Below, piece after piece: positions 9,281 through 24,621 of a stretch of DNA of 32,000 bases. Every line of letters starts with the position of its first letter. The first letter of the stretch is position 1. The notes under the pieces are model-generated. The model had not been told where the DNA came from. It worked only from the letters and a program-made list of their open reading frames with translations, and did not search any database. The DNA lies in NCBI RefSeq assembly GCF_014078525.1, contig NZ_MU078695.1, forward strand, positions 68,851 through 100,850, read 5' to 3'. A program made the translations under genes and the position numbers. Origin of the DNA: Nitrosopumilus sp. b3. Its GTDB lineage: Archaea; Thermoproteota; Nitrososphaeria; Nitrososphaerales; Nitrosopumilaceae.

Positions 9281-9322
9281 ACTGCATTTAGAAATTAACG
9301 ATTTAAATCACTATTCATACTA

Positions 9323-9634: not shown

Positions 9635-9650
9635 ATAGCCCTGAATTTTC

Positions 9651-10400: not shown

Positions 10401-10469
10401 ATCTATCTGAAAACTGGTTAGATTCAGGCACAAAATGCGTTATGGATGGATGATTTTCCGAAAAAACCA

Positions 10470-10901
10470 TCAAGCAGTTATTGGATAGTATGTGATAACA
10501 AATGGAAGTACAAAACACACTATTGAAGCAATAAGCAGAACAACCTGCATCCAGTTCCAACCCATTCCTACGATATAATGCCACATGAAAAAGAACATCG
10601 CAGTTAGTCCAGATGCTAGTATCAGGAATTTGTATTCAAGAGAATCCACAAAGTCAATCAGTGTTTCAGAAAACATAATCCCTACTGCAGGAATCACAAA
10701 AACAGTTAGGAAGAACAGCAGTGTGGCAATCTTCCATGTAGCGACAAGAGGTCTGAGGTTTTTGTGTCCTTTCACTCTTTTGAATCGAAAGTGCCATCCG
10801 GCATTGTCACGGTATATCGACAACAGTATTGCAATCTCTTCAAGAAAGAACAGAAATGCACCTACAAGTGCTACGTTATAGATTGTTGATAGTTCCACCA
10901 T
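10470..10901 (-). CDS. Integral membrane protein (about 4 TM helices)
   Basis: 143 aa, four long hydrophobic segments, immediately downstream of the ATPase gene on the same strand. Confidence 0.65.
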   Translation of the reverse strand: MVELSTIYNVALVGAFLFFLEEIAILLSIYRDNAGWHFRFKRVKGHKNLRPLVATWKIATLLFFLTVFVIPAVGIMFSETLIDFVDSLEYKFLILASGLTAMFFFMWHYIVGMGWNWMQVVLLIASIVCFVLPFVITYYPITA

Positions 10902-10961
10902 GTTTTCTCAATAATTGTTTAAAGTGTTAGTTCTTAATTGCTTCCATTATCACTAATTGCA

Positions 10962-12815
10962 TCAATTCATTCTGGTCTTTATTTTTTCAAAGAAGTCAGG
11001 AACGTTTTGTATTAGGAGAAACAAAACGTTAGAATACTTGTTTTCTTGTTTAAGAGATTCTAAGAGTTTCTTATCGTCTGAAGTTACAACAACTGCATCA
11101 TATTTGGTTACATTTCGTGAAATGTTGTAATGTATGTCTGAAGTTCCAAGTTCAACTTCAACCACTGAATTAAATTTAGAAATCATAATGTCAGGACCGT
11201 CTTTGACGTTGTTTCTTATCTCCAGTCCAATGCCATCAATCTTCTTTGAAATCCAGTCGACATAGAACTGATGTCTTACACTTGGAATCTGTTTCGGTTT
11301 TTGATAGAGAATAATTGGTGCTCCTCTTCCAAGCTTTGCCTTTTGGATCTCAATCTTCTTTTTCTTCAACAGAGATTTGACCACTGAGGCATACTTCTTG
11401 TCGTCCCATCCAAGAGATTTTCTCCTTTGACGGACTGGCAAGAAAGGCTGTTTTTCCAGAAATTCCAAAAACTCATTCTCTTCGGGTCTAGGCAAATCGA
11501 TTTTTTCAGGCACAAAATTCTCTGTTTCAGGCTCATGTGCACGTATTGGAAAGTCGTCAGAGATTATCAGAAATGGTTCGTGCCCGATTGTGCTTACTAT
11601 GGCGTTCTTGTTTGGAAGTCTTACGAATTTGTCTGAAAGATATTCTGCCTCTATTGGGTCAACAAACCCGACAGACTCTGCAATAATTTTAATGTCTTCT
11701 TGATGCTGCAGTCGGAATGAAATCTTTGTTCCGGTATTTTTGAAGATGTCTCTTTCAATATTGCTTGGCGACTGCGTGATCAGAACTATTCCACATCCTC
11801 TCTTTCGCAATCTTGTTGCAAACTCTGTTGCAGGCCACGACTCTGTGACAATCATCTTGTGAAGAATTCTTGGAACTAACAGTTGTGCTTCGTCTGCAAC
11901 AAATATGTTTGTCAGTTGTTCGGTTTGCTCTCTCTTCAACATTTTTCGCAGAAAGTAAATCGTGAATATGTTGTAAATCAGTCTTAGTTCAGAGTTGTAT
12001 GCTACTAAAGAATCAAGTTCATGAAGGTCTATGACAACATTTTTCTGATCAATAGTTGTAAAGTCAGGATTTGATTTTGTGCATAGAAAGATTTCTTTTA
12101 GCGGGCTTCTAAGAAAAGGATCTAATCTTACCAGAAGTGCAGTCTTTGTCTTTTGCAGTGCAGTTAGCTTCTGTCTGTCATATGATTTGATGTTGTGAAT
12201 TAGTTCTTCAATGCTGTTGCTTTCTTTGATTGTTTCCTGAAGGACAAAGTTCATCTGAGCTGAAAGGTCTGTGTATTCTTTTTCAATTCCTTTGAAGACA
12301 GTTTCTCGAAACAATTCTCTTATCAGTCCTGGGTCTTTCAGATCAAAAGGATTGATTCTCAGGTTTTTGCCAACTGCACAATACGTTGTTTCTTTTCTTA
12401 GATTTGGAATGATGTTTTTCCATTCTCCTTCCACATCTATGATCAAAGCCTTTGGTCCTGACTTTTCCACTTTCGATACAAGATTCATTGCAAACCTTGT
12501 CTTTCCAGAACCTGTCTGTCCGGATATCATCGTGTGCTTTGTCAGAATGTCGCTTGGAAGATTGAAGGGTAGTCCTTCAGAGGTTCTGCCCAGTTTCATG
12601 CCCCAATAGTCCAAAATAGGGCTGTTTTCGAGCCTGAATCTCACGATTTGGCACCTTGGACAGTATCTTTTTCCTCTCACAAAGTTTCCGCAAATACATT
12701 GCCAGTTCACTGCCACACCTCCCGACATATTTGACAGAGTTTGTAGAGATTCGGCTTTTGCTGTCTCATCACTACTTTTGTCTCGATGTGAAACATGCAG
12801 AATATCTGCTGGCAT
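10962..12815 (-). CDS. Zn-ribbon / HerA-FtsK-superfamily (DUF87-like) P-loop ATPase with C-terminal wHTH-like and PD-(D/E)xK-like regions
   Basis: Zn-ribbon 'CICGN...CPRCQ'; Walker A 'GQTGSGKT'; Walker B-like 'IFVADEAQ'. The C-terminus has a basic helical segment, then 'GPDIMISKFNSVVEVELG' (nuclease-like, inferred). An alternative start 'MSGGVAVNW' at 12728 would reduce overlap with the upstream ORF. Confidence 0.8.
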   Translation of the reverse strand: MPADILHVSHRDKSSDETAKAESLQTLSNMSGGVAVNWQCICGNFVRGKRYCPRCQIVRFRLENSPILDYWGMKLGRTSEGLPFNLPSDILTKHTMISGQTGSGKTRFAMNLVSKVEKSGPKALIIDVEGEWKNIIPNLRKETTYCAVGKNLRINPFDLKDPGLIRELFRETVFKGIEKEYTDLSAQMNFVLQETIKESNSIEELIHNIKSYDRQKLTALQKTKTALLVRLDPFLRSPLKEIFLCTKSNPDFTTIDQKNVVIDLHELDSLVAYNSELRLIYNIFTIYFLRKMLKREQTEQLTNIFVADEAQLLVPRILHKMIVTESWPATEFATRLRKRGCGIVLITQSPSNIERDIFKNTGTKISFRLQHQEDIKIIAESVGFVDPIEAEYLSDKFVRLPNKNAIVSTIGHEPFLIISDDFPIRAHEPETENFVPEKIDLPRPEENEFLEFLEKQPFLPVRQRRKSLGWDDKKYASVVKSLLKKKKIEIQKAKLGRGAPIILYQKPKQIPSVRHQFYVDWISKKIDGIGLEIRNNVKDGPDIMISKFNSVVEVELGTSDIHYNISRNVTKYDAVVVTSDDKKLLESLKQENKYSNVLFLLIQNVPDFFEKIKTRMN

Positions 12816-12934
12816 CTTTCACATACTCTTTTACAGTTGATGCAGGTCAAAGAAAGACATGTGTAGCACTCGCCGTTGATTTCGTTTCTTTTTGACAGAG
12901 ATTTGCATATGCTGCATCTAACCAGATTTTCCAT
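12707..12934 (-). CDS. Small multi-CxxC zinc-binding protein (75 aa)
   Basis: Cys pairs 'CSIC', 'CYTC', 'CINC', 'CERC', 'CQIC'. In the same-strand train between the integrase and the ATPase. Confidence 0.5.
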   Translation of the reverse strand: MENLVRCSICKSLSKRNEINGECYTCLSLTCINCKRVCERCQQIFCMFHIETKVVMRQQKPNLYKLCQICREVWQ

Positions 12935-13097
12935 TGTTGATCACTACAAAACATTTTGGACAGACCAGAACATCATCAATCAACTGCAAACACATCTCGC
13001 AGCATTTGTTGTTGCATTTGTGACACACACCAAGAGTTTTGTAAGAATTAATCGAGTGTCCACATTTCAAAATTATTGATTCGAATTCTTCGTACAT
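12918..13097 (-). CDS. Small multi-Cys zinc-binding protein (about 59 aa from 'MYEEF')
   Basis: The ORF is open from 13130, but the ATG at 13097 overlaps the TGA of the upstream 41-aa ORF (TGATG), suggesting translational coupling. Contains 'CHKC', 'CEMC', 'CPKC'. Confidence 0.5.
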   Translation of the reverse strand: MYEEFESIILKCGHSINSYKTLGVCHKCNNKCCEMCLQLIDDVLVCPKCFVVINNGKSG

Positions 13098-13222
13098 CAC
13101 TCTTCCTCCATGTCGACAAACGCATTGCACAGATCACAAAGTGGAAAGTTCTCCCAAAAATGTATGCCGTATTTTTCATCGTCTCCACGATATTCTTTGC
13201 ATCGAGTACAGAACCCTTTCAT
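13097..13222 (-). CDS. Mini zinc-ribbon protein (41 aa), below the ORF-track length cut-off
   Basis: Hand translation of the minus strand gives MKGFCTRCKEYRGDDEKYGIHFWENFPLCDLCNAFVDMEEE*, with two CxxC pairs. The stop overlaps the next ORF's ATG. Confidence 0.4.
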   Translation of the reverse strand: MKGFCTRCKEYRGDDEKYGIHFWENFPLCDLCNAFVDMEEE

Positions 13223-13281
13223 CTCTTTGTATTGCACATGAAGTAAAAACTAGATTGCGTCTGCAAAACTTTCCGAATATG

Positions 13282-14583
13282 TTAGACGTCTTCTATTTTT
13301 TGTAAAAGAAGATCAAACTGTTTCTGAGAATCTTTTTTGTTTGAGGCTGTCTTCGGATTACAAATCTCTGTTAGTGCGTTCTTCAACTTCTCCATTTTTT
13401 CGGAATCGGATGCGATTCCATACAACAGTTGGTCGAGTTTCTGCTTTTTTTGATCAAGAGCAACAGAATTTTTGACGTTAAGAAAAGCACCGCATCTATA
13501 GCAGAATTTAGAGACAGGAGAGTTTTGTATGCTGCACCTGAAACATTCGATTGATGTTATCTGTTGGATGTTCTCTTCTGGTTCTTTGACTCCGTTGAGT
13601 GTCCTGACTGCCTTGTCAATATGCCTTCCATATCTCTTCATGTATGTTCTTGGCATCTTTGAGCCGAACTGCCATCCCATAACCAAACACTGTTGAGGTT
13701 CATTGAGTTTGTCCAGAATCTCGTCGGCTTTTGTGTGTCTGAAGAGATACTTGAATACCCTCTTCTTGATTCCGGCCCTTGCTGCAATCTTCTTGATTAG
13801 TCGATATGACGCGTTGTAGTCTATCTGCTTGTTACGGTTGGAACGTCCAAAGCCTACCCATAATGGAGCGTCTGTTTCGTCTGACCTAGGATGGATGTTA
13901 AGCCAGGTGGTCAACGCAGGGACAGATGTGATAATTCTTACAAAATCTTCTCCTTTCTTTCCATGAACCCATAGTTTTGCCCCTGTTGAGTCAAATTCGA
14001 TATCTCCAATGTGTAACGTCAGGACTTCTTCAGGCCTTCTTCCAGATTCAAAGAAAATCTCCAAAAGTGCCCTGTCTCGAGGATTTTGAGTGGCGTTAAG
14101 AAGTGCAATCTTTTCGTCATATGTCAGCAGGTTTTTTGGAAGTATAGGATGCTTGCTCTGCAGATTTTTCTTGTCTTTTATCCATCTAACTTCTGGAGGA
14201 TATCCGTAATCGTCCCAGTCTTTGAAGGACTTCCAGAACTTCTTTATGATGATCTTGAAATCTCTTTTTGTCCAGTCCGACCAGTCCTTTCTTTCAAGGT
14301 CGGCGACAAACTTTATCAAGTCATCTTTTGTCACGTCTTCAAATGGTTTTCCTATATCTGTAGAAACTTGTCGCAATGTGTTAAGACATTTGCAGATTCT
14401 TGATTTTGAAACACCTTCTGCAACTCTGACATAGTAGTACTTGCGGAGAGTTTCCGAATTGTACTTGTCGTCTTTTATCTTTCTAAGTTCTGAATCTATC
14501 CTCTTGTCCAGTTGGTACAATTCTTCTGCTCTGCTCATTACATCAACCTGTTTTCTGTTTAATTGTAGATTGCATGTAGACAA
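13282..14583 (-). CDS. Tyrosine recombinase / integrase with C-terminal zinc-ribbon and helical extension
   Basis: 433 aa. Catalytic-region motifs 'ESGRRPEEVLTLHIGDI' (Arg I) and 'LFRHTKA' (R-H box), with a Tyr-bearing 'RTYMKRYG'. After the catalytic domain comes 'CFRCSIQNSPVSKFCYRCG' (CxxC-x10-CxxC) plus a charged tail. Confidence 0.9.
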   Translation of the reverse strand: MSTCNLQLNRKQVDVMSRAEELYQLDKRIDSELRKIKDDKYNSETLRKYYYVRVAEGVSKSRICKCLNTLRQVSTDIGKPFEDVTKDDLIKFVADLERKDWSDWTKRDFKIIIKKFWKSFKDWDDYGYPPEVRWIKDKKNLQSKHPILPKNLLTYDEKIALLNATQNPRDRALLEIFFESGRRPEEVLTLHIGDIEFDSTGAKLWVHGKKGEDFVRIITSVPALTTWLNIHPRSDETDAPLWVGFGRSNRNKQIDYNASYRLIKKIAARAGIKKRVFKYLFRHTKADEILDKLNEPQQCLVMGWQFGSKMPRTYMKRYGRHIDKAVRTLNGVKEPEENIQQITSIECFRCSIQNSPVSKFCYRCGAFLNVKNSVALDQKKQKLDQLLYGIASDSEKMEKLKNALTEICNPKTASNKKDSQKQFDLLLQKIEDV

Positions 14584-14584
14584 T

Positions 14585-14750
14585 CTTCCGAATTAAAACG
14601 CAGAGAAAATGCACGGTGCAGCCCTTGACCCGTTACAAAAGGCTGGGGAAGTGCCTATATTATCAGGTCAGTTGCTGAACTGATTGTTTCTCTGCATTTT
14701 TAATGATTTTCGGAAAGAGGATTGGATCCGTTACACCTGCACAACGTGCA
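14585..14750. promoter_or_regulatory. Structured GC-rich divergent control region between integrase and orc1/cdc6 (imperfect 24-31 nt inverted repeat, nested hairpins, repeated palindromes)
   Basis: Left arm 14585-14608 'CTTCCGAATTAAAACGCAGAGAAA' pairs with right arm 14687-14717 'TTTCTCTGCATTTTTAATGATTTTCGGAAAG'. Inner stems are GCAC/GTGC plus CAGCC/GGCTG (14611-14654) and TCAGTT/AACTGA (14668-14683). TGCAC(N1-3)GTGCA occurs at 14610-14620 and 14738-14750, and CCGTTACA at 14630-14637 and 14728-14735. Confidence 0.45.
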
Positions 14751-14913
14751 CCCCTACAACGAATACAATTCTCATTCAGAAAATCTCATGACAAAGACTT
14801 CTTTTCTAATAAAAAATAATTTTCTATGTTCCAACAGCTATTTTGCAAAAGCTGTTTTTTCGGAAAATGGTCCCATCACAATATTTAAGCTTGATAAAAT
14901 TCGTTTAGCAAAA

Positions 14914-15894
14914 ATGAAAAAGCAGATATTATTGGACAGGAGCGTATTTGAAGATACCTTCATCCCAGAGACGTTCGTTTCAAGAGAAAATCACATTAGA
15001 GAGATCATTCGGCATCTACAGCCTGTAAAGAATGGCGATTTTTCACAGTATCTGTATATTCACGGGCCACCAGGCGGAGGAAAAACTGCAATAATCAGGT
15101 CGATTCTCAAAGAAAACTTTCCAAAACAGCATGTCTATGTGAATTGTTTCAGAGACAGAACTGCCAACAAGATAATGGAGGAAGTGTTACTTCATTCCGG
15201 AATTATGTTCAGCGGAAGAGAATCAACAAGAGATATGATCAAGAAGTTTGAGAAATCTAAGAAGAGAATGTTGATTTGCCTTGATGAGGCAGATTATATC
15301 AAAGACACAGACATACTAGGGGTTTTTGTAAGAAATCTCTGTGGACTAATACTGATTTCTAACAATCATTCTTTTTCAAAAATAGATTCCAGATTAAGAA
15401 GTAGAATATTCTTTAATGAAGTAGAGTTCAACCCATATGAACCTGCAGACATCAATCAGATTCTGACTCATCGTATTTCCTATGGTTTACGTGACGGATG
15501 TATCAATGACAATCTTCTATCGGTACTATCAAAGTTCTCCAACGGAGATGCAAGAATTGGACTGCAGACTCTAAAGATAGCAGCAAATGAGGCTGAATCC
15601 AACAACTCGGAAACCATCACCATGGATGAAATAAAGTTGTCTGCCAAGAGAACCAGAAAATACAGACTGTCACTTGTTTTAGGTGAGCTCAACGAACACC
15701 AGTTGAAAATTCTAGACATCCTCAAAGAACACAACAATCTGAGATCGGGCGAGTTGATGAGGATCTACAGGCAGAGGACACAACACGACATTAACGACAG
15801 GACATATCGCAACTACATGATGCAACTTGTCGATTTTGCACTTGTAAAAGAAGGAGGCACCACAAAGGCAAGGACCTATGAGATTTTGTTGTAA
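14914..15894 (+). CDS. cdc6: Orc1/Cdc6-family AAA+ replication initiator (short form)
   Basis: Walker A 'GPPGGGKT', Walker B 'CLDEADYI', C-terminal winged-helix-like region. The ORF is open from 14722, but 'MKKQILLDRSVFEDTFIPETFVSRENHIREI' has the canonical Orc1 N-terminal spacing, and the upstream part covers the repeat-rich control region. Confidence 0.9.
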   Translation: MKKQILLDRSVFEDTFIPETFVSRENHIREIIRHLQPVKNGDFSQYLYIHGPPGGGKTAIIRSILKENFPKQHVYVNCFRDRTANKIMEEVLLHSGIMFSGRESTRDMIKKFEKSKKRMLICLDEADYIKDTDILGVFVRNLCGLILISNNHSFSKIDSRLRSRIFFNEVEFNPYEPADINQILTHRISYGLRDGCINDNLLSVLSKFSNGDARIGLQTLKIAANEAESNNSETITMDEIKLSAKRTRKYRLSLVLGELNEHQLKILDILKEHNNLRSGELMRIYRQRTQHDINDRTYRNYMMQLVDFALVKEGGTTKARTYEILL

Positions 15895-15936
15895 GGACTA
15901 ATGCATCTTTTTATCTAATCACATGTATAAGCAACC

Positions 15937-16281
15937 GTGGATTTTGACGGATTTCAGTTATTGATTGAAAGAGACTACAAGGAGTTTGCAGAGTTTGAAG
16001 AAAATTCAAAGAATATGTCATTAGAAGAACTGAAAGAAAATCACAATAATTGGCGCAATAAGATGAAAGACATTACTGAAAAATACGGATTTTCAAATGA
16101 AAGTGAAAAAGATCCTGACATTTCTCTGTTCATGGTCAAACTGACATATTTTTACTATCTTGCAATGTTCTGTTGGAAGTCTTTGCGGGCATATACTGAA
16201 AGACTTGCAGAAGAGCATCAAAAATTGAAGAAATCTAAGAGAAAAACAACTGCAAAGAAAAAAGCCAAGAAAAAAGAGTAG
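15937..16281 (+). CDS. Hypothetical protein (114 aa, GTG start) with Lys-rich tail
   Basis: ORF directly downstream of cdc6. Its stop codon lies inside repeat copy R1. One hydrophobic segment and a KKxK tail. Confidence 0.5.
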   Translation: MDFDGFQLLIERDYKEFAEFEENSKNMSLEELKENHNNWRNKMKDITEKYGFSNESEKDPDISLFMVKLTYFYYLAMFCWKSLRAYTERLAEEHQKLKKSKRKTTAKKKAKKKE

Positions 16282-16302
16282 AGATATTGTAAGCGTCTCA
16301 AT
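16278..16302 (+). repeat. Cassette-boundary repeat copy R1 (GTAGAGATATTGTAAGCGTCTCAAT)
   Basis: The first 20 nt are identical to R2. Contains the TAG stop of 15937..16281. GAGAT/GTCTC can pair around the TGTAAG loop. Confidence 0.8.
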
Positions 16303-16402
16303 CGCTTCTGCCGTTATCTAAATTGTCAAAAAGGTATCCGACCCCACAGTGGTTGCGGATTCCATCCGGTCCATCCCCACTGTGGGTTCAGACCCCTTTT
16401 TG
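16303..16402 (+). repeat. Long repeat copy A: CTGCCGT...AAATTGTCAAAAAGGTATCCGACCCCAC core plus ~76-nt GC-rich imperfect hairpin
   Basis: Core 16320-16347 matches 18159-18186 with 1 mismatch in 28. Hairpin stems: CAAAAAGG (16327-16334) / CCTTTTTG (16395-16402); CCCACAGTGG (16343-16352) / CCACTGTGGG (16377-16386); nested CGGAT (16356-16360) / ATCCG (16364-16368). Confidence 0.75.
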
Positions 16403-16410
16403 AAAAATAA

Positions 16411-16435
16411 GTAGAGATATTGTAAGCGTCCTAAT
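16411..16435 (+). repeat. Cassette-boundary repeat copy R2 (GTAGAGATATTGTAAGCGTCCTAAT)
   Basis: Near-identical to R1. Preceded by GAAAAATAA, as in the other copies. Lies 40 nt upstream of the methyltransferase ATG. Confidence 0.8.
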
Positions 16436-16474
16436 TTTTTTACTAAATATAAAGAACAAACACCATTTATCAAC

Positions 16475-17038
16475 ATGGGATTTTTTGATACTGAGAAAGG
16501 GGTTAATGAATACATCAAGATGGCAGAAGGTTTTGATGGAACAGAACTGATCAAGATTTTACAAAAGTTTCTTCCTTTAAAATCTACAGTGCTAGAGCTT
16601 GGTATGGGGCCTGGGAAAGACTTGGATATTCTAAACGAATCTTACCTAGTTACGGGTTCCGATTATTCCCAGATTTTCATAGACAAATACAGAAGACAAA
16701 AACCCGATGCAGATTTGCTAAAACTTGATGCGATAACTATTCCAACAGATAGAACTTTTGACTGCATATATTCTAACAAGGTATTACATCACTTAACAAG
16801 AGAAGACTTGAAAAAATCCTTTCAGAGACAGAAAAAAGTCTTGAATCCAAATGGTATTGGATTTCATTCTTTTTGGAGAGGGGATGAAGATGAAAATTAT
16901 GACGGATTATTATTTACAAAATATCAGATTGAAGAATTAAAGAAAGTGGCAGAGAATGATTTTGAGATTTTAGCCATAGAAATTTACACAGAAATGGAAA
17001 AAGATGATTCAATATATTTAATGGTAAAAAATAAATGA
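16475..17038 (+). CDS. Class I SAM-dependent methyltransferase
   Basis: 187 aa. SAM-binding motif I 'VLELGMGPGKD', acidic loop 'GSDYS', and 'DCIYSNKVLHHL' (post-II/III region). The stop codon lies inside repeat R3. Confidence 0.8.
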   Translation: MGFFDTEKGVNEYIKMAEGFDGTELIKILQKFLPLKSTVLELGMGPGKDLDILNESYLVTGSDYSQIFIDKYRRQKPDADLLKLDAITIPTDRTFDCIYSNKVLHHLTREDLKKSFQRQKKVLNPNGIGFHSFWRGDEDENYDGLLFTKYQIEELKKVAENDFEILAIEIYTEMEKDDSIYLMVKNK

Positions 17039-17062
17039 TAGAAATACTGTAAGCGTTCCAAT
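17037..17062 (+). repeat. Cassette-boundary repeat copy R3 (GATAGAAATACTGTAAGCGTTCCAAT)
   Basis: Fills the whole 23-nt gap between convergent genes. Overlaps the TGA of the methyltransferase and abuts or overlaps the TGA (minus strand) of 17062..17481. Confidence 0.75.
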
Positions 17063-17481
17063 CATTTATTGAGATTATAAGTCAGTGCCAACAAAATACA
17101 GTGTTTTATTTTGTTTACAGGAATTTTCTCTTTTTCATTAAACACGATCGCTCTGTTTCCCTGATAGGTTAATTCTGGGTATATTTTTCTGAAAGTCTCT
17201 ACCAAGTTGGTCTGACAGTGAAAGTACATTGCAAATTCTCCTTTGAATTTATGCTTGTTTATACGAATCATAGTGCCACTTTTTGATTCAGTTGTAAGAT
17301 AACTTGGCTCGCCCCATCTTAGGGTCTCTTCTAGTTTACCAACTTCTTTTGTTTTTGATGCTACTTCAAAAATGAGTTCTCGAAGAGACAATAATTTGAT
17401 TCTTATTTTTGATGGATAACTAGCAAACTTCTCAGTTATCTCTGGATTTGAAAATGTTTTCTGTATTTTCTTCTGACTCAT
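17062..17481 (-). CDS. Small conserved protein, possibly DUF1801/YdhG-like
   Basis: 139 aa. 'LEETLRWGEPSYL...' and the overall pattern resemble YdhG-like proteins from memory; not verifiable here. Confidence 0.6.
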   Translation of the reverse strand: MSQKKIQKTFSNPEITEKFASYPSKIRIKLLSLRELIFEVASKTKEVGKLEETLRWGEPSYLTTESKSGTMIRINKHKFKGEFAMYFHCQTNLVETFRKIYPELTYQGNRAIVFNEKEKIPVNKIKHCILLALTYNLNK

Positions 17482-17545
17482 GTTCTTGAATTACAATTGG
17501 TTTTTTGAATATTAGTAATTTACCATGATGACAAAAAATAAAGTT

Positions 17546-17570
17546 GGTAGGAGTTTGTAAGTACTCCAAT
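17546..17570 (+). repeat. Cassette-boundary repeat copy R4 (GGTAGGAGTTTGTAAGTACTCCAAT)
   Basis: Preceded by ACAAAAAATAA (17531-17541), as in R3 and R5. Perfect 5-bp stem GGAGT/ACTCC around TTGTAAGT. Confidence 0.8.
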
Positions 17571-17591
17571 AGCTTTGTTTTTATATTAGAA

Positions 17592-17619
17592 TATACCATA
17601 GTATACTAGAGTATACCAT
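17592..17619 (+). promoter_or_regulatory. Candidate operator of the RelB/RelE-like operon: three (G/A)TATAC units at ~10-bp spacing
   Basis: 'aTATACCAta GTATACtaga GTATACCAtg'. TATACCAT occurs at 17592-17599 and 17612-17619. The palindrome GTATAC occurs at 17601-17606 and 17611-17616. The element overlaps the ATG (17618) and sits just downstream of TATA-like 'TTTTATATTA'. Confidence 0.4.
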
Positions 17620-17851
17620 GGAACAAAGCACAATCAAACTTTCTAAAAAGATAAAAAACGATCTCAAAAAACAGATGACCCATCCAGGCGAAACCTATGA
17701 AATGGTAATTGCAAGACTGCTAAAAAACTCACAGGAAGACGATGTGTTAAGCCCTGCAATCATCAAAAATATTGAAGAAGGAGTGGCAGACATCAAGGCA
17801 GGACGTGTGTATACATCTGAACAAGTCAAAAAGAGACTAGGCCTAAAATGA
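17618..17851 (+). CDS. Putative antitoxin (RHH/RelB-like) of the RelE/ParE-family toxin
   Basis: 77 aa. N-terminal 'TIKLSKKIKNDLKK' resembles the strand-helix of ribbon-helix-helix proteins. The stop is 1 nt from the toxin start. Confidence 0.7.
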   Translation: MEQSTIKLSKKIKNDLKKQMTHPGETYEMVIARLLKNSQEDDVLSPAIIKNIEEGVADIKAGRVYTSEQVKKRLGLK

Positions 17852-17852
17852 T

Positions 17853-18107
17853 ATGACATGGCAAGTCATATGGTCTGAAAAGTCTGTAAAGCAGCTAGAA
17901 AAACTAGACAAGAAAAATGCACAAAGGGTTTATGATGCAGTGTTAGATTGTACACAAGATCCGTTCAAAAGTGTGGCAAGACTTTCAAATTCGCCATTTT
18001 ACAGACTTAGAGTAGGAAATTACAGAGTTATTTTGGATCTGCAGCAAAGTAAAATGATTATCTTTGTTATCGAAACAGATCACAGGGGAAGAATTTACAA
18101 AAAATAA
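17853..18107 (+). CDS. relE: RelE/ParE-family type II toxin
   Basis: 84 aa. 'W.V.WSEKSVKQLEKLDKK...', 'FYRLRVGNYRVILDL' and 'IIFVIETDHRGRIY' are the canonical RelE/ParE blocks. The stop lies at the edge of repeat R5. Confidence 0.85.
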   Translation: MTWQVIWSEKSVKQLEKLDKKNAQRVYDAVLDCTQDPFKSVARLSNSPFYRLRVGNYRVILDLQQSKMIIFVIETDHRGRIYKK

Positions 18108-18108
18108 T

Positions 18109-18131
18109 GGTAGGAGTTTGTATACTCCAAT
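18109..18131 (+). repeat. Cassette-boundary repeat copy R5 (GGTAGGAGTTTGTATACTCCAAT)
   Basis: Same as R4 except for a 2-nt deletion in the loop. Preceded by ACAAAAAATAA, which encodes the toxin C-terminus and stop. Confidence 0.8.
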
Positions 18132-18213
18132 AACTTTCTGCCGTCACTTCATTTTGTAAAATTGCCAAAAAGGTATCCGACCCCACTGTGGGCGCGGAGA
18201 CCATCAGGTCCAC
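18132..18213 (+). repeat. Long repeat copy B (CTGCCGT...AAATTGCCAAAAAGGTATCCGACCCCAC...), lacking the right hairpin arm of copy A
   Basis: Shares CTGCCGT and the 28-nt core with copy A. The following ~30 nt (CTGTGGGCGCGGAGACCATCAGGTCCAC) align at roughly 70% to copy A's hairpin left arm and loop. No equivalent of the right arm was found. Confidence 0.7.
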
Positions 18214-18247
18214 TACATCACTCTATCAAATCATAGAAAATTTAAAA

Positions 18248-19225
18248 TTACTTGACTTGAATTATTCCTTTTTCCACTAGATATTGAATGGAATTAACTA
18301 ATTCAGTATCAGATGTAAGATCATTTGACCACCATCCAATATTTTGACGAACCCAATCTGGAACAGTATTCTCAGAATTACCAGAATTTCCAGACAAAAT
18401 TGGAATCTCAATTATTTCCTCAGTAATCAAATATTCAATGCCATCAATAAATTCAAAATCTTCAATCAATCCATCAGACCACCATGATGCGACATTTTTG
18501 AAATATGACGGAATCTGAATTTTATTTAATTGAAAATCCACTTTGCCAAAATTTTCTTCATCATAAGATGCAATTATACTAAAACTCCCAGATTCCCAAT
18601 TATCTGCAATTCTGATGTGAGCAGTAAAATCGCCGTTAGATTTTCCAGTGATTTTTACATCAGATGTTAAACCACTAGGATGAAGAATCTTTAATGTGAT
18701 CAGTTCCCCTCTTTGATAATTTTTGATATTACCATTTACCTCAACTGTGGATTTCTCATTACCTGTAACGGTAATTTCCTCTTCATCAATCTCCAAACTT
18801 CCAATGCTGGACATGACTGGTATATTTTGCACAGAAACAGAAGTGATAGAAAAGGAGGCAGAACCAATTTCATTATTGAGATAAGTTGCTAATAGTGGAT
18901 AATTTCCTACATCCCAATTAGAATCAAGCAGTATAGGAGTAGAAAAATTGCCTTCCTTATCTGCTTGAGTTTTTAGAATTATTGAAGTGTTATCAGGTTT
19001 TTTGATTTCAATGAGTATCACCTGACCTGAATTATAATCAACTACATTTCCAGAGATATTAAGAATTGTGGGAGCAGTTTCAGAGATAGAGATGGAATCT
19101 TGGTCAATATTTAGCGAACCAAACTCAGTTGAACTACCGGAAATGGCAGAAACTGATACAAAATTTGAACTGACAATAATCATTACTAGAATTGATGTAA
19201 TAACTATGCCATAATTCAAGATCAT
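18248..19225 (-). CDS. Secreted/cell-surface protein with duplicated beta-rich domains and duplicated C-terminal W-rich motif
   Basis: 325 aa with an N-terminal hydrophobic signal/anchor. Two internal repeats ('NISGNVVDYNSGQVILIEIKKP...NWDVGNY' and 'VNGNIKNYQRGELITLKILHP...NWESGSF'). Two C-terminal 'WWS(D/N).L..D.E....I.YL' motifs. Confidence 0.75.
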   Translation of the reverse strand: MILNYGIVITSILVMIIVSSNFVSVSAISGSSTEFGSLNIDQDSISISETAPTILNISGNVVDYNSGQVILIEIKKPDNTSIILKTQADKEGNFSTPILLDSNWDVGNYPLLATYLNNEIGSASFSITSVSVQNIPVMSSIGSLEIDEEEITVTGNEKSTVEVNGNIKNYQRGELITLKILHPSGLTSDVKITGKSNGDFTAHIRIADNWESGSFSIIASYDEENFGKVDFQLNKIQIPSYFKNVASWWSDGLIEDFEFIDGIEYLITEEIIEIPILSGNSGNSENTVPDWVRQNIGWWSNDLTSDTELVNSIQYLVEKGIIQVK

Positions 19226-19395
19226 GTCTCATAAGAAATATCATTCAATAATTAAAGAATTTCATGGGTAGGAAATCATTAGAGGTTGAAAACAGATTAA
19301 AGAAAAGTATTTTGATTATCAAAAATTTTATGCATGCGTAATTTGTCCATAATATTCAAACATGATCACATATTCTTGAAATCAATCATAATAGT

Positions 19396-19782
19396 ATGAA
19401 CATTCGTGTAATACTAATTGATGATTACCATGATGTAACTGGAGTAATTTCAGAATTTCTTGGTTTCAACTCAATTGATGTAATTGCTATTGGAAGGAAT
19501 GGAAAAGAAGCAGCAGAATTATACAAAAAGCATTTACCAGATGTTGTCGTAATGGATTATTTGATGCCAAAGTTTAGTGGAATATATGGTCTAGAGAGGA
19601 TCCGCAAGATAAATCCCCATGCCAAAGTTATCATGTTGACAGGAAGTACAGATGACAAATTAGATGAGAAATTAAAAAAAGCGGGAGCTTCTGAAATATT
19701 ACCCAAACCATCTAGTATGAATATAATTATGGAAACAATAAAAAAAGTTTCAATGAAGAATTCTATTACAGTAAATAATTAA
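19396..19782 (+). CDS. Single-domain response regulator (CheY-like receiver)
   Basis: 128 aa. 'ILIDD', phospho-acceptor context 'DVVVMDYLMP', 'IMLTG' and 'KP' are the receiver-domain signature positions. Confidence 0.85.
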   Translation: MNIRVILIDDYHDVTGVISEFLGFNSIDVIAIGRNGKEAAELYKKHLPDVVVMDYLMPKFSGIYGLERIRKINPHAKVIMLTGSTDDKLDEKLKKAGASEILPKPSSMNIIMETIKKVSMKNSITVNN

Positions 19783-19815
19783 GGGGGAAATGAAAAAACT
19801 CTAAAATTAATTTAT

Positions 19816-20136
19816 TTATCTTTCCAACCTAGAAATAAAATCAGATATGCTATTTTGATTTACTGATGTGCCAAAAATACTCTTTATTTTATTGAGAACT
19901 AAATCGTATGAATCCCCATAGATACTGATCAAAACAGACTTTAGGCTTTCAGGATGATCAAATATTTCATTTGTAGAAATGCTATATTCTTCTTTCAATT
20001 TTTTATTAATTATCTCAAGTGAGTCAATTTCAATTCCAAGCAAAACATGCTCAATTACAGTTGCTACTAATTCTCTATAGGTTTCATCCGCATTTAGATT
20101 TTTGACTTTATATTCATCCAAAAAAATCATTTCCAA
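19816..20136 (-). CDS. Hypothetical protein (106 aa)
   Basis: Clean ORF convergent with the receiver gene. No motifs recognised. Confidence 0.55.
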   Translation of the reverse strand: MEMIFLDEYKVKNLNADETYRELVATVIEHVLLGIEIDSLEIINKKLKEEYSISTNEIFDHPESLKSVLISIYGDSYDLVLNKIKSIFGTSVNQNSISDFISRLER

Positions 20137-20363
20137 AATTAAAGTCTAAATTAGAAAAAGGCACACTCATTTTTTAGCACATACATAATAAGTAATAAAA
20201 AAGACATCATCATGACATAATGCATTTTTTTGTTTTTAATAGAAATGCTGTGCATTTTAAGCACATGAAGTATAAATAAAAATTTGTAAATTTTTTGTAA
20301 AATTTACAGAAATCAAGGGATTCAAAGAGACTAGTTAAAATGGAACAGAATTAAATCGCCCCT

Positions 20364-20495
20364 ATGAAAGCCAAGTTTAATGGTAAATGTGTAGAATGTG
20401 GTGAATCAATTAAGGTTGGAAAGGAAATACTGAAAAATTCAGATGACAAATGGGTTCACAAAGCATGCTCAGATTTAGAAGAAGAATTACCATAA
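20364..20495 (+). CDS. Small Cys-containing protein (43 aa), below the ORF-track cut-off
   Basis: Hand translation gives MKAKFNGKCVECGESIKVGKEILKNSDDKWVHKACSDLEEELP*. It has CxxC plus H..C, a possible zinc knuckle. The ATG sits in a long promoter-like AT-rich gap. Confidence 0.45.
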   Translation: MKAKFNGKCVECGESIKVGKEILKNSDDKWVHKACSDLEEELP

Positions 20496-20552
20496 TTTAC
20501 TAGAATAAATCAGTAAAAAATTTTTTAAATAGCTTTGAAAAAACATGATCAG

Positions 20553-20975
20553 ATGAATTTAAAATTTAACGTATTTTTGATGGCATCAATTATTGCAGTT
20601 TTGTCTATCGGAGTCATTCCGACAGAGATTTCAGCACAACCCAATGAAGTTACGATCACTCCAATTAACGAGGAGATTAGTTTGGAGAAAACAGTAGCCA
20701 CCATGTATGTACCAGAAGACAATACATTGCCTTGGGGGTTTGTAAAAGGTGCACCATCAGAATACGTTGAAAGATTTCCTGTAATAATTCAGTTTTACAG
20801 CGGCGAGGATCCTGTACATTTCGCTCAAGTAGATGTAAAAGGAGACGGTTCCTATGAATACAAATTCAGAGTTAGAAACTTGGATTCGACTACAGGAGAA
20901 TTTGTAAATATTTTTGAAGGAGAATACACTGTAAAGATTTTCAAAGTAATTCCAAATTCCAACGACATAGTTTAA
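20553..20975 (+). CDS. Secreted hypothetical protein
   Basis: Signal-like 'MNLKFNVFLMASIIAVLSIGVIPTEISA'. The ORF track begins at a TTG (20535); the ATG at 20553 is preferred. Confidence 0.65.
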   Translation: MNLKFNVFLMASIIAVLSIGVIPTEISAQPNEVTITPINEEISLEKTVATMYVPEDNTLPWGFVKGAPSEYVERFPVIIQFYSGEDPVHFAQVDVKGDGSYEYKFRVRNLDSTTGEFVNIFEGEYTVKIFKVIPNSNDIV

Positions 20976-20977
20976 AA

Positions 20978-21595
20978 TCAATAAGGTGTTCCAGTTTCTC
21001 TTTGTTTTGCAAAAGCTGAAACATACCACTCAAATTCATCTAAAAATTTAGTAATCCTTCTATCATAATTTTCATCCAATAATTTTCCATCATCATTAAA
21101 CACTTCCTGCACTTTAGAGATTGGTAATTGTGAAGGAATCGCAGGCATTCCCATCTCTGCCAATATTTGCCGTAAATGATTTCCAGCCAAAACTCCTCCA
21201 AATGGACCTGCTGAATATGAAATAATAGCTGAAGGCTTGAAAAAATATTCTTCTAAAAAATAATCCAATGTATTTTTTAACGCAGATGACACGCTATGAT
21301 TATATTCAGGAGTTATTGGAACATACCCTTCTGCATCCTGAATTATTTTTTGTAGTTTTTGCAATTTTACAGAGGGTGATTTCATCTCTTTGTACATTTT
21401 ATCAAGTAATGGAAGTTCCAATTCCACAGGGTCAACCATAGAAACCTGATGGCCGCGATTTTGCAGTTTTTCAACTATCCATTGTGCAACTTTGATTCCT
21501 TGTCTTTCAGATCTAACAGAACCAACAATAACTACAATTTTTGCCAATAGGCACAAAATAAAAAAATACAATAAAAGATTTTTTCTAAATCCCAC
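20978..21595 (-). CDS. NAD(P)H-dependent FMN reductase family oxidoreductase
   Basis: 'IVVIVGSVRSERQG' (the GSxR signature), 'PEYNHSVSSALKN' and 'ISYSAGPFGG'. The true start is probably internal (for example TTG near 21547, giving 'MAKIVVIVGS'), because the N-terminal 20 aa look non-native. Confidence 0.8.
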   Translation of the reverse strand: MGFRKNLLLYFFILCLLAKIVVIVGSVRSERQGIKVAQWIVEKLQNRGHQVSMVDPVELELPLLDKMYKEMKSPSVKLQKLQKIIQDAEGYVPITPEYNHSVSSALKNTLDYFLEEYFFKPSAIISYSAGPFGGVLAGNHLRQILAEMGMPAIPSQLPISKVQEVFNDDGKLLDENYDRRITKFLDEFEWYVSAFAKQRETGTPY

Positions 21596-21649
21596 CTAGA
21601 ATTAATTCACAGAATTCATATATTGATTGGATAGTTGAAGAGCTAGAAA

Positions 21650-22189
21650 ATGAGCAAGAACTTTTGGCATGATATTGAATCAGGAAATGATATTCCTGAA
21701 ATCATTAACGTGATTGTAGAGATCCCAAAGGGTTCAATGAACAAATATGAATATGACAAAAAACACAACATGATAAAATTAGACAGGGTACTATTCTCAC
21801 CATTTCACTATCCAGGAGATTATGGACTGGTTCCTCAAACTTTATCTGATGATGGGGATCCACTTGATGCGCTCGTACTAGTTACAAACTCAACATATCC
21901 AGGAATTCTAATTGAGGCAAGGCCAATTGGATTACTGCAAATGAAAGATGATGGTAAATTAGATGACAAAATAATTTGTGTTGCAACAAATGATCCCAGA
22001 TATTTACACACTACAGATATTGCCGATATCGAAGATCATTACCGTTCAGAAATTGCTCACTTTTTTCAAGTGTATAAAGACCTAGAAGGAAAAAAAGTAG
22101 AGATCTTAGGTTGGAAGTCTGCAAAAGAAGCAAAAATTGTAATTGTGGAATCAATAAAAAGATACAAAGACACTTTGAAAAAATATTAG
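21650..22189 (+). CDS. ppa: Inorganic pyrophosphatase (family I)
   Basis: 179 aa. 'VIVEIPKGSMNKYEYD', 'LDRVLFSPFHYPGDYGLVPQTLSDDGDPLDALVL' and 'DDKIICV' are the classic family I PPase active-site blocks. Confidence 0.95.
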   Translation: MSKNFWHDIESGNDIPEIINVIVEIPKGSMNKYEYDKKHNMIKLDRVLFSPFHYPGDYGLVPQTLSDDGDPLDALVLVTNSTYPGILIEARPIGLLQMKDDGKLDDKIICVATNDPRYLHTTDIADIEDHYRSEIAHFFQVYKDLEGKKVEILGWKSAKEAKIVIVESIKRYKDTLKKY

Positions 22190-22190
22190 A

Positions 22191-22445
22191 ATGTCAAAAA
22201 AATGTGAACATTTCTCTGAAGAGAAACAAGTTTCTCCAAATACAAAAAGTTGTCAAGAGTGTGAAAAAGAACACCTACCAGTTGTTGCAATTAGAATGTG
22301 CTTGACATGTGGTCATGTTGGATGTTGTGATTCATCTATTGGAAAGCATGCAACCAAGCACTTTGAGGAAACAGGGCACCCAGTTATGAAAGCAATCCCC
22401 AATGACATATGGAAGTGGTGTTATATTCACAAAGAGTATTACTGA
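22191..22445 (+). CDS. UBP-type zinc-finger domain protein
   Basis: 84 aa. 'CEHF...CQEC...IRMCLTCGHVGCCDSSIGKHATKHFEETGHPV' matches the zf-UBP pattern. Starts 1 nt after the ppa stop. Confidence 0.8.
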   Translation: MSKKCEHFSEEKQVSPNTKSCQECEKEHLPVVAIRMCLTCGHVGCCDSSIGKHATKHFEETGHPVMKAIPNDIWKWCYIHKEYY

Positions 22446-22458
22446 TATTCTTTAGTAT

Positions 22459-22656
22459 CTACTTCATTGTTCGTAGTTGCTTTTCAGTGTCACGAATAAA
22501 ATCTTCATATTTCATAATTTGAGTTGTAATTCGAAATGCATTCATTTGATCCTCATTGGCTTTTGAGCCTAAGAGAGGTTTTCGTAGTGCCATAAGTCGC
22601 TGCTGTTCCTCAGTTGCTTTAAGAATATCATTTCTAAGATCATCCCTTGTTGCCAT
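22459..22656 (-). CDS. Small helical hypothetical protein (65 aa)
   Basis: Clean ORF in an otherwise unoccupied interval, with charged heptad-like composition. Confidence 0.5.
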   Translation of the reverse strand: MATRDDLRNDILKATEEQQRLMALRKPLLGSKANEDQMNAFRITTQIMKYEDFIRDTEKQLRTMK

Positions 22657-22733
22657 ATATTGTATACGTGAATTTGAGATTTAAGAATTTCAATACATAT
22701 TGATTTTTTAATAGTTAGAAAATGATATTTTTA

Positions 22734-24506
22734 ATGACAGAATATCAGCTTGGAAAATGGGATCTGTCAGAATTAGCAAAAGATCCAAAAAGTCCAGCAT
22801 TTCAAAAACAGATTCAGGAATTAGAAAAACAGTCTGAAAAATTTGAAAAAATTAAATCCAAACTAGATCCCAAAATGTCATCTGAAAAATTTATGAATAT
22901 TTTACATCAGGTAGAAGAGATCTCAGAAAAAATGAGCAAGATTGGAGGATATGCATCTTTGTCATATTCTTCAGACACACAGTCTGATGAGGCAACATCA
23001 CTAATGACCAAAATGTCAAAATTAGGTTCTGAGGTTTCAAACAAGATTCTATTTTTTGATTTATGGTGGAAAACTCAAGTCGATGATAAAAATGCAAAGA
23101 GACTAATGAAAAATGCAGGAGAAGTAACAGAGTACCTAGCCCATAAAAGATTATTTGCAAAATATGCACTTAGTGAACCTGAAGAGAAAATAATCAACAC
23201 ACTAGACGTTACTGGAATCTCTGCACTAGTAAAATTGTATGACAAAATAACAAATGCCTACGAGTACAAAATGAAGATAGGCAATAAAACAAAAAAGATG
23301 ACAAGAGAGGAACTCACAAATTATGTTCGAAGTACTAATTCCAAAGTTCGTGAAACTGCTTACAAAACAATTCTTTCAAAATATTCCGAAAACAAGGGAG
23401 TAATTGGGGAAATATATCAAAACATTGTTCTTAATTGGAGAGATGAAGGAATTGAGATTAGAGGCTACAAATCCCCAATCTCAATGAGAAATATTGGAAA
23501 TGATGTTGATGACAAAACTATAGAATCACTTCTTTTAGTATGTAGGAAAAATTCCTCAGTTTTTCAGAAATTCTTTGCTCAAAAAGCAAAGATGTTGAAA
23601 ATGAAAAAATTGAGGAGGTATGATTTGTACGCACCAGCAGCAGCAAAAATCAAAGAAAAAAACTATTCATACAACGATTCAGTTAAACTAGTTTTTGAAT
23701 CTCTAGGAAAATTCAGTTATACATTAGAAGAATTTGCAAGAAAGGTATTCAATGAAAATCATATTGATTCATCAGTAAGACAAGGAAAGAGAGACGGGGC
23801 ATTTTGCAGCACATTAACTCCAAAAATTACACCCTATGTTCTAGTAAATTTTACAGGAAAATCAAGAGATGTGTTTACTTTAGCTCATGAATTAGGCCAT
23901 GCTGTTCACAGTCAAGCTGCACAAGACAGATCAATTCTTGTTCAAGATGCACCATTGCCATTAGCAGAAACTGCATCAACATTTTCAGAATTGTTGCTGT
24001 ATGATAATATATCCGATAAAATTTCAGACAACGAAAAAAAGATCATGTTATCTGAAAAAATAGATGATCTATATGCAACGATTCTTAGACAATCATTTTT
24101 TACGATTTTTGAAGTAGATGCCCACGAACAAATTGGGAAAGGAACTACAGTTGATGAAATTTCAAAGACATATCTTAAAAATCTCAGGGAGCAGTTTGGA
24201 AACTCAGTAAATCTTTCAGAAGACTTTGCAATAGAGTGGAGTTGCATTCCACATTTTTACCACACACCATTTTACTGCTATGCATATTCATTTGGAAATT
24301 TACTTGCATTATCACTATTTCAAAGATACAAGAAGGAAGGAAAAGACTTTGTCCCATCATATATCGAAATTCTTGCCGCAGGTGGCTCAAAGAAACCAGA
24401 AAAACTGCTATTAGAGCACGGATTCGACATAGGTTCTCCAAAGTTTTGGCAAGAGGGATTTGATTATGTCAGTAATCAAGTTAAAACATTATCATCATTG
24501 AATTAG
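22734..24506 (+). CDS. pepF: Oligoendopeptidase F (M3B metallopeptidase)
   Basis: 'FTLAHELGHAVH' (HExxH) with downstream 'ETAS.FSE'. Length and N-terminal 'W.L..L' pattern are typical of PepF. The ORF is open from 22722; the ATG at 22734 ('MTEYQLGKWDL') is preferred. Confidence 0.9.
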   Translation: MTEYQLGKWDLSELAKDPKSPAFQKQIQELEKQSEKFEKIKSKLDPKMSSEKFMNILHQVEEISEKMSKIGGYASLSYSSDTQSDEATSLMTKMSKLGSEVSNKILFFDLWWKTQVDDKNAKRLMKNAGEVTEYLAHKRLFAKYALSEPEEKIINTLDVTGISALVKLYDKITNAYEYKMKIGNKTKKMTREELTNYVRSTNSKVRETAYKTILSKYSENKGVIGEIYQNIVLNWRDEGIEIRGYKSPISMRNIGNDVDDKTIESLLLVCRKNSSVFQKFFAQKAKMLKMKKLRRYDLYAPAAAKIKEKNYSYNDSVKLVFESLGKFSYTLEEFARKVFNENHIDSSVRQGKRDGAFCSTLTPKITPYVLVNFTGKSRDVFTLAHELGHAVHSQAAQDRSILVQDAPLPLAETASTFSELLLYDNISDKISDNEKKIMLSEKIDDLYATILRQSFFTIFEVDAHEQIGKGTTVDEISKTYLKNLREQFGNSVNLSEDFAIEWSCIPHFYHTPFYCYAYSFGNLLALSLFQRYKKEGKDFVPSYIEILAAGGSKKPEKLLLEHGFDIGSPKFWQEGFDYVSNQVKTLSSLN

Positions 24507-24523
24507 ATTTTTAAATTAATGGG

Positions 24524-24552
24524 GCTGACAGTCCAACGCATGGACTGTCAGC
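24524..24552 (+). other. Perfect 12-bp GC-rich stem-loop downstream of pepF (terminator-like or small structured RNA)
   Basis: GCTGACAGTCCA (24524-24535), loop ACGCA, TGGACTGTCAGC (24541-24552). Begins 18 nt after the pepF stop. Confidence 0.5.
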
Positions 24553-24621
24553 TTGTTCCCCGAACGGTTTGAATTCGATGTCATCCTACAAAAAATGGCA
24601 ATCTGATTTAAACGTTTGAAA

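Follow-up and report, generated by a model that had tools for sequence, protein, structure and literature searches.

Direct repeats in a genomic island of Nitrosopumilus sp. b3 as probable recombination junctions of two tandem elements in tRNA-Val(CAC)

We analyzed a 32,000-nucleotide (nt) stretch of the genome of Nitrosopumilus sp. b3 (assembly GCF_014078525.1, contig NZ_MU078695.1, positions 68,851 to 100,850), hereafter called the window, in which two direct repeats of about 100 nt, copy A and copy B, bracket a 1.8-kb block of small genes. The window is AT-rich (30 to 40% GC), and its best protein and nucleotide matches are from Nitrosopumilus. The repeats are very probably the right-hand recombination junctions of two related integrative elements, E1 (to the left of copy A) and E2 (the 1.8-kb block), which form a tandem pair within the 3′ end of an intron-containing tRNA-Val(CAC) gene in this relative of N. 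adriaticus. Four observations carry this conclusion: the repeat itself, the tRNA end that closes it, the empty sites of related genomes, and a break of synteny.

In the mechanism that we propose, each repeat would consist of an element arm, comprising a terminal hairpin of a repeat family designated R, a CTGCCGT box, an inverted-repeat block, and a degenerate T-arm, followed by 12 to 13 nt common to the element and the tRNA, CCATC(C/A)GGTCCA(C). We infer from the sequence the position of strand exchange, which would be catalyzed by the element's tyrosine integrase in this shared stretch, as well as the order of integration and the present excisability of either element. Copy B would be a P-O-B′ attachment (att) site, or attR, in which the arm and the core are followed by the native chromosome, and copy A would be a P-O-P′ site, in which the E1 arm and the core are followed by the opposite arm of E2. 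An attP-like junction of this kind would arise from integration of one element at the attL or attR of a resident one. The attL would be expected upstream of the window as an intact tRNA-Val followed by a P′-type arm (TCCCCACTGTGGG... or a relative of it), and an attB-like junction would join tRNA-Val to CTACATCACTCTATC.

The direct repeats and their tRNA-Val(CAC) ends

The components of the two copies, all on the plus strand, are as follows.

16279-16302, +, R1, terminal hairpin repeat of E1 (covariance-model match of 53.3 bits), starting with the stop codon of the open reading frame (ORF) 15937-16281
16303-16319, +, conserved extension CGCTTCTGCCGTTATCT, with CTGCCGT at 16308-16314, present only behind terminal R repeats
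16320-16361, +, element-side (P) arm of copy A, with the left inverted repeat and a degenerate tRNA T-arm (T-loop GCGGA, as in copy B)
16362-16373, +, core of copy A, CCATCCGGTCCA, equal to the last 12 nt of tRNA-Val(CAC)
16374-16401, +, right (P′) arm of copy A, TCCCCACTGTGGGTTCAGACCCCTTTTTG, attributed to E2 and identical to the tRNA-Val 3′ flank of contig L001 (see below)
18111-18131, +, R5, terminal hairpin repeat of E2 (38.2 bits)
18132-18158, +, extension with CTGCCGT (18138-18144) and a 14-nt spacer
18159-18200, +, element-side (P) arm of copy B
18201-18212, +, core of copy B, CCATCAGGTCCA, with one mismatch to the tRNA; collinearity with the chromosome of a relative starts here
18213-18247, +, chromosomal flank (B′), orthologous to the 3′ flank of the intact tRNA-Val in N. 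adriaticus-like contigs

Copy A (16279-16373, 95 nt) and copy B (18111-18212, 102 nt) share a module made of an R hairpin, an extension, and a core. Global alignment of the whole modules revealed 78 identical positions in 105 columns, a score reached by none of 2,000 shuffles. A repeat search identified a 54-nt direct repeat (16320-16373 versus 18159-18212) with 87% identity, and the 20-mer AAAAAGGTATCCGACCCCAC occurs exactly twice in the 32 kb, with no occurrence expected from 100 shuffles. No third copy of the module was found in the window. The original prediction, made from the letters of the window, had described two 28-nt cores differing at one position, followed by about 30 nt aligning at roughly 70%. 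The difference is a T/C at 16326/18165, and the next 26 nt are identical at 20 positions (77%). That CTGCCGT follows only R1 and R5 (with spacers of 5 and 14 nt) and that R2, R3, and R4 lack the extension also held, no CTGCCGT being present behind any of these three repeats. The designation of the 28-nt segment as the core did not hold, as this segment is P-arm sequence derived from the element, with the recombination core corresponding to the 12- to 13-nt tRNA end that closes the module on its right. The far end of the island, for which a third copy of this 28-nt segment had been proposed as a mark, is therefore probably without one: the left end should probably carry an intact tRNA-Val and a P′ arm but no P arm.

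The tRNA was identified with a degenerate pattern matching both arms of a palindrome centered on copy A (described below). In metagenomic contig JACKQG010000655.1 (L001), the match is located directly 3′ of an intron-containing tRNA-Val(CAC) gene. Window positions 16362 to 16401 are identical to L001 at 40 of 40 positions, comprising the last 12 nt of tRNA-Val(CAC) and 28 nt of its flank. The terminal 12 nt of the tRNA close both copies, as CCATCCGGTCCA in copy A and CCATCAGGTCCA in copy B. Since copy A matches the tRNA end of L001 throughout and CCATCAGGTCCA closes copy B, the 3′ end of tRNA-Val forms the terminus of the shared module. Upstream of this end, both copies contain a diverged T-arm, in which GCGGA replaces the TCAAA T-loop of the tRNA. 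In the final 28 nt, copies A and B are identical to the real tRNA at 20 and 18 positions, respectively, and to each other at 22 positions. Because the two copies are closer to each other than to the tRNA and have the derived T-loop in common, the T-arm part is borne by the element and is no remnant of the host gene. The 5′ half of tRNA-Val was not found in the window, GGACCGG being absent, and the only tRNA detected in the window, tRNA-Thr at 27473, was also the sole Rfam match at gathering thresholds. We also considered the P arm plus R1 as a decayed full-length tRNA-Val, as the lengths are similar and MAFFT aligns the sequences. This candidate was dropped: beyond the T-arm and acceptor end, the similarity is that of chance.

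Searches of wider collections returned the tRNA flank of L001 and chance matches. The exact P-arm core pattern had no match in 185,579 species genomes. The degenerate two-arm pattern matched two metagenome contigs, L001 at the tRNA-Val flank and L002, a GC-rich chance match, and had no match in viral contigs. In the viral contigs, R plus CGCTT gave two chance matches in coding regions, and the core plus the P′ arm gave none. The repeat module was not found in 1.4 Mb of other loci, except for the tRNA flank of L001.

Comparison with relatives revealed the right boundary of the island. For the 325-amino-acid (aa) protein encoded to the right of copy B (18248-19225, minus strand), an orthologue with 91% identity is present in CP167059.1 (L003), a complete N. 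adriaticus-like genome, and the orthologues of L003 and of two further contigs, L004 and L089, show 88 to 91% aa identity. In L003, the genes for IleRS and ferritin, sucC, sucD, and two small ORFs precede tRNA-Val(CAC), which is followed by the 325-aa gene and by the genes for a response regulator, FMN reductase, pyrophosphatase, and M3 peptidase and, further on, tRNA-Thr. The gene content on this right side of tRNA-Val matches that of the window to the right of 18213. By blastn, window 18201-29221 aligned with L003 11026-1 at 88% identity over about 11 kb, and no alignment to L003 was obtained anywhere to the left of window position 18201. The intact tRNA-Val of L003 ends 33 nt from the stop of the 325-aa gene, the position that copy B occupies in the window, and its 3′ flank aligns without insertions or deletions to the sequence behind copy B. 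The same empty arrangement, an uninterrupted tRNA-Val(CAC) by the 325-aa gene, was found in L004 and L089. These empty sites and the start of collinearity at 18201 indicate that copy B is the right junction (attR) of the island at the 3′ end of tRNA-Val. The suspicion that copy B was the right end of the whole island is therefore supported, and a comparison with relatives, proposed at that stage, did recover a single uninterrupted site, in all three contigs. As a separate observation, another Nitrosopumilus lineage (L005 to L007) has a member of the 325-aa family (a 319-aa homologue) that is not beside tRNA-Val; behind it come about ten very small ORFs (44 to 74 aa) and then an M10-like peptidase gene.

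Copy A as a candidate junction between tandem elements

Contig L001 is collinear with L003 (83.7% identity) as far as the final base of tRNA-Val, beyond which the two diverge completely. The next 28 nt of L001 are 100% identical to the right arm of copy A and are followed by znuB/znuC-like genes. This arm is unlike the native tRNA-Val flank of L003 and L089. Perfect identity of a noncoding sequence between genomes that are about 84 to 88% identical elsewhere, together with its absence from the native flank, indicates that the 28-nt right arm is mobile-element sequence, that is, a P′ arm. Copy A accordingly reads as a P arm, a core, and a P′ arm, as would a hybrid site between tandem elements sharing the core. 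As copy A runs 28 nt beyond the core into the right arm, an 85-nt imperfect palindrome results, with arms at 16318-16352 and 16377-16411 (80% complementarity), a predicted folding energy of -48.8 kcal/mol (z = -4.7), and a dyad at 16364.5, inside the 12-nt core. The location of the dyad fits a pair of inverted integrase-binding sites, which are predicted, around the region of strand exchange. Copy B lacks the right arm, ends at the center of the palindrome, and folds no better than about 2.5% of shuffles. An ORF overlapping the palindrome (16318-16554, minus strand) is most likely spurious.

Two side observations were made in L001 (8201-10344). The synteny break falls exactly at the 3′ end of tRNA-Val, and the znuB/znuC-like genes behind it recall the metal-transport cargo at the start of NitMar-E3, an element considered in the last section. 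An inverted GGTCCACCCCACAATG motif is present about 170 nt downstream.

Three other explanations of the repeats were weighed. The first, which we consider unlikely, is that a single composite element integrated once, via the site of copy B, and that copy A is an internal duplication of its own att region, by unequal or R-to-R recombination, that brought in the 1.8-kb cargo. This would account for E2 having neither an integrase nor a replication gene, and the highest similarity among the R repeats is that between R1 and R2 (88% over 34 nt), on either side of the 99-nt att module of copy A. In addition, a related Nitrosotenuis locus (L011, described below) carries an uninterrupted, R-punctuated cargo array ending in R plus CTGCCGT. 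However, the right arm of copy A is missing from copy B and is identical to the sequence behind the tRNA-Val of L001. Tandem site-specific integration yields P-O-P′, whereas P-O-B′ would be copied if the right end had simply been duplicated.

That the repeat is instead a structured noncoding element, such as a terminator or insulator hairpin or a small RNA gene, which was duplicated together with the cassettes independently of any recombination function, is very unlikely. The long hairpin of copy A does lie directly behind a gene, and the R hairpins come after stop codons. Nevertheless, Rfam in E-value mode returned no credible match in the repeat region, the 3′ half of the hairpin is missing from copy B, and the tRNA 3′ end and the synteny break coincide exactly with the end of the module, whose 12-nt core is contained in a published att site. 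Least probable of all, to the point of being barely credible, is the chance landing of two copies of a dispersed palindromic repeat of the miniature inverted-repeat transposable element (MITE) or repetitive extragenic palindromic (REP) type. The palindromic structure and the presence of two copies would be in keeping with such a repeat; against it, only two copies occur in 32 kb, target-site duplications are lacking, and copy B is a half-site.

Several points weigh against tandem integration in tRNA-Val. No circular or excised form was observed in this analysis, which was confined to sequences. The left end of the island, where an intact tRNA-Val, a P′ arm, and the neighboring sucCD genes would be expected, is located outside the window, which leaves the island with a boundary on its right side alone. 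In copy A, the inverted repeats have a spacing of 24 nt, which is wider than in classical core-type sites. A single other contig, L001, underlies the attribution to E2 of the 28-nt arm on the right of copy A, and the znuBC-like genes behind the tRNA of this contig are only circumstantially element cargo. Finally, heterology in the overlap region inhibits strand exchange by tyrosine recombinases. The mismatch in the core of copy B (CCATCAGGTCCA) suggests decay, and excision of E2 or of the whole array may no longer be possible. Between the two options left by the original prediction, tandem elements at the same att site agree with the tRNA ends, the empty sites, and the synteny, whereas copy A as a simple attL does not agree with a hybrid P-O-P′ junction.

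Elements E1 and E2 and the R hairpins

Element E1 extends to the left beyond the start of the window, with a backbone preceded by cargo.

1-16278, no strand assigned, E1, at least 16.3 kb; backbone at about 9.5 to 15.7 kb, cargo before the backbone
10962-12815, -, HerA/FtsK-like ATPase (PF01935, 4.6e-13)
13282-14583, -, tyrosine integrase (PF00589, 4.8e-11), with a weak C-terminal zinc-ribbon match
14722-15894, +, Cdc6/Orc1-like AAA+ protein (PF22703 Cdc6_lid, 6.7e-11)

The GC content of E1 is 37 to 40%, versus 30 to 34% for the chromosome, and its backbone is 65 to 73% identical at the nucleotide level to integrase loci of Nitrosotenuis and Nitrosotalea metagenome-assembled genomes (MAGs). 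The integrase gene, located 1.7 kb to the left of copy A, is apparently intact, and the catalytic residues R183, K209, R282, W304, and Y314 are invariant in an alignment of 19 homologues. No Pfam family other than the generic PF00589 exceeded the curated cut-off, and element integrases of the XerC/D type are the closest relatives. Micrarchaeota, Bathyarchaeia, and other archaeal MAGs contain abundant relatives at 33 to 41% identity (loci L013 to L086); such relatives also occur on contigs binned as bacteria (Chloroflexia, Phycisphaerae, Nitrospirota, and Zixibacteria), which could reflect mis-binning or spread across domains. A scan of viral contigs with the integrase profile returned one distant match only (23% identity).

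The cargo of E1 comprises an MmeI-like restriction-modification gene, a PLD-like gene, and a 1137-aa ORF. The first of these encodes a fused restriction-modification enzyme of 1114 aa resembling MmeI/Eco57I, and the next one a protein whose PLD-like match is weak and sub-threshold; together (139-4441) they look like defense cargo at the left of E1. The 1137-aa ORF (5867-9280, minus strand), between the defense genes and the backbone, had no Pfam match at E ≤ 0.001. Two small Cys-rich ORFs with CxxC motifs (75 and 70 aa; 12707-13130, minus strand) are located between the HerA and integrase genes, in a stretch that is kept at 65 to 70% nucleotide identity in the Nitrosotenuis and Nitrosotalea loci.

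Element E2 spans 1,839 bp from core start to core start and contains the following features between the two copies.

16412-16435, +, R2 hairpin repeat (46.7 bits)
16475-17038, +, class I S-adenosylmethionine (SAM) methyltransferase, cargo (PF13649, 7e-14)
17039-17062, +, R3 hairpin repeat (46.5 bits)
17062-17481, -, DUF1801 protein, cargo (PF08818, 2.8e-10)
17548-17570, +, R4 hairpin repeat (44.1 bits)
17618-18107, +, putative antitoxin (17618-17851) and ParE-family toxin (17853-18107), cargo (PF05016, 4.9e-09)

According to Pfam, the segment 16402-18158 codes only for the methyltransferase, the DUF1801 protein, and the ParE toxin-antitoxin pair, with no integrase or replication gene. Since E2 carries cargo and no integrase, it would be a decayed older element or a cis-mobilizable passenger. 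Homologues of the methyltransferase with 70 to 78% identity are chromosomal in other Nitrosopumilus; the contexts of two of them (L092 and L093) are ordinary chromosomal neighborhoods in which we found no R or att modules and no further E2-like units. Just upstream of the start codon of the antitoxin gene, direct repeats AGAATATACCATAG and AGAGTATACCATGG overlap a palindrome (17575-17621), which is probably the operator of the toxin-antitoxin operon.

The R repeats form a family of hairpins of about 24 nt with a 5-bp stem, the loop TnTTGTAAGCG, an A-rich leader, and a CAAT tail; the copies of the window are 21 to 24 nt in length, with a 5-bp stem and a 6- to 11-nt loop. A covariance model built from seven copies recovered nine copies, five from the window and four from L011, all oriented alike. 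The copies of L011 are as follows.

7675-7711, -, R copy in L011
6462-6498, -, R copy in L011
6143-6179, -, R copy in L011
5581-5617, -, R copy in L011

Across the 5-bp stem, 88.6% of cells are paired, double changes are present in three of the five pairs, and the covariation score was reached by no shuffle and in no slid register. These values, obtained from only seven related sequences, are suggestive of genuine covariation of the stem. Searches with the R model and motifs in about 45 other loci, including loci of the integrase family and chromosomal contexts of cargo genes, gave nothing significant. The hairpins punctuate cargo genes in two related elements from different genera, and six of the nine come directly after the stop codon of a gene on the sense strand. 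Terminators or insulators specific to the element are one possibility for them; cassette boundaries or relics of ends that elements once had are others.

Locus L011 has the same HerA, integrase, and Cdc6 backbone and carries GATACTGTAAGCGTCCCAATCGCTTTCTGCCGTTATCT on the Cdc6 side of the integrase gene, at a distance of 4.4 kb from it. R1 plus its extension (window 16283-16319) is 92% identical to L011 5567-5604 over 38 aligned positions. In L011, the terminal R and CTGCCGTTATCT are followed about 26 nt further on by CCTTTGGACCCACTC, identical at 12 of 15 positions to the att published for NitAQ6f-E1 in tRNA-Met(CAT). Because the window and L011 share the box and differ in the core, the terminal hairpin and the CTGCCGT box are a conserved arm feature of this integrase family, with the core-proximal sequence tracking the target tRNA. 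The hairpin and the box together are predicted to be a protein-binding (arm-type) site.

A further, speculative proposal is that the R hairpins bound a cassette-accretion system of this family of thaumarchaeal elements, in which host-like genes, such as those for the methyltransferase, the DUF1801 protein, and the ParE toxin-antitoxin pair, would be captured or shuffled at R sites beside attP and the terminal R plus CTGCCGT would be the arm-type site coupling the array to the integrase. We regard this as doubtful. If true, R-based accretion would be an archaeal, integron-like way to build cargo arrays.

Relation to known elements

In the catalogue of thaumarchaeal integrated elements of Krupovic et al. 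2019 (PMC6563490), 57% of the elements are in tRNA genes, including intron-containing ones, the att sites are short (median 17 bp), and tandem arrays formed by elements with tyrosine recombinases are noted. Table S2 of that study lists NitMar-E3 of Nitrosopumilus maritimus SCM1, a 41-kb element in tRNA-Val(CAC) with the att sequence TCCCATCCGGTCCAC. NitMar-E3 resembles the locus of the window in its tRNA-Val(CAC) target, in an att that contains the 12-nt core of the window, in its marine Nitrosopumilus host, and in the location of an integrase of the XerC/D type (arCOG01245) at the element end opposite the tRNA. It begins with an ABC metal-transport gene (PMC6563490). Compared by its published description, NitMar-E3 differs from the locus of the window in having metal-homeostasis cargo, in the absence of Cdc6 and HerA from its gene table, and in not being described as a tandem array. 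Cryptic Nitrosotenuis elements of the NitAQ6f-E1 type (PMC6563490), to which L011 is related, share the integrase, HerA, and Cdc6/Orc1 backbone of E1, with 65 to 73% nucleotide identity for L011 and its sister loci. As in the window, the terminal R hairpin and CTGCCGTTATCT box of L011 are located a few tens of nucleotides from a tRNA 3′-end core. In contrast to the window, elements of this type target tRNA-Met(CAT), and their arm sequence from the CTGCCGT box to the core is unrelated.

Tandem integrations and loss of the integrase after integration have been described for archaea (PMC8371274), as have tandem arrays, accretion, and cis-mobilizable elements (CIMEs) for integrative and conjugative elements (ICEs) of bacteria (PMC5704250). 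By analogy, ICE/CIME accretion is the closest mechanistic counterpart of E2: an integrase-less, att-bounded unit shares the tRNA gene with an adjacent integrase-bearing element, and an attP-like hybrid junction separates the two. However, the hosts of ICEs and CIMEs are bacterial and not archaeal, and cis-mobilization of E2 would be an analogy only, as E2 may be a decayed remnant. Integron arrays are similar to the window in that short hairpin repeats in one orientation (R1 to R5) punctuate gene- or operon-sized cargo beside a tyrosine-recombinase site. An integron attC is a 55- to 140-nt bipartite palindrome with paired R and L boxes, whereas the R repeats of the window have about 24 nt and a 5-bp stem and do not qualify as attC. 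The window further differs from integrons in its tRNA-targeting XerC/D-type integrase, in the inversion of one cassette, and in the lack of evidence of recombination at R.

Targeting of tRNA genes, short att sites, tandem arrays, and integrase-less remnants are all already described, and the understanding of such elements is unchanged; the element-specific R hairpins are the only part that might be new. For this marine ammonia-oxidizing archaeon, the analysis establishes where a genomic island ends on the right and which gene it targets, and adds a second, independent case of tRNA-Val(CAC) use beside the published one of N. maritimus. The preserved junction of copy A, read as P-O-P′, would expose both att arms of an uncharacterized family of archaeal integrases, and the hairpin and CTGCCGT box are kept between Nitrosopumilus and Nitrosotenuis elements with different tRNA targets. 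Thaumarchaeal integrases reportedly use unusually short att sites, and the arms of this junction provide concrete substrates for their biochemistry.

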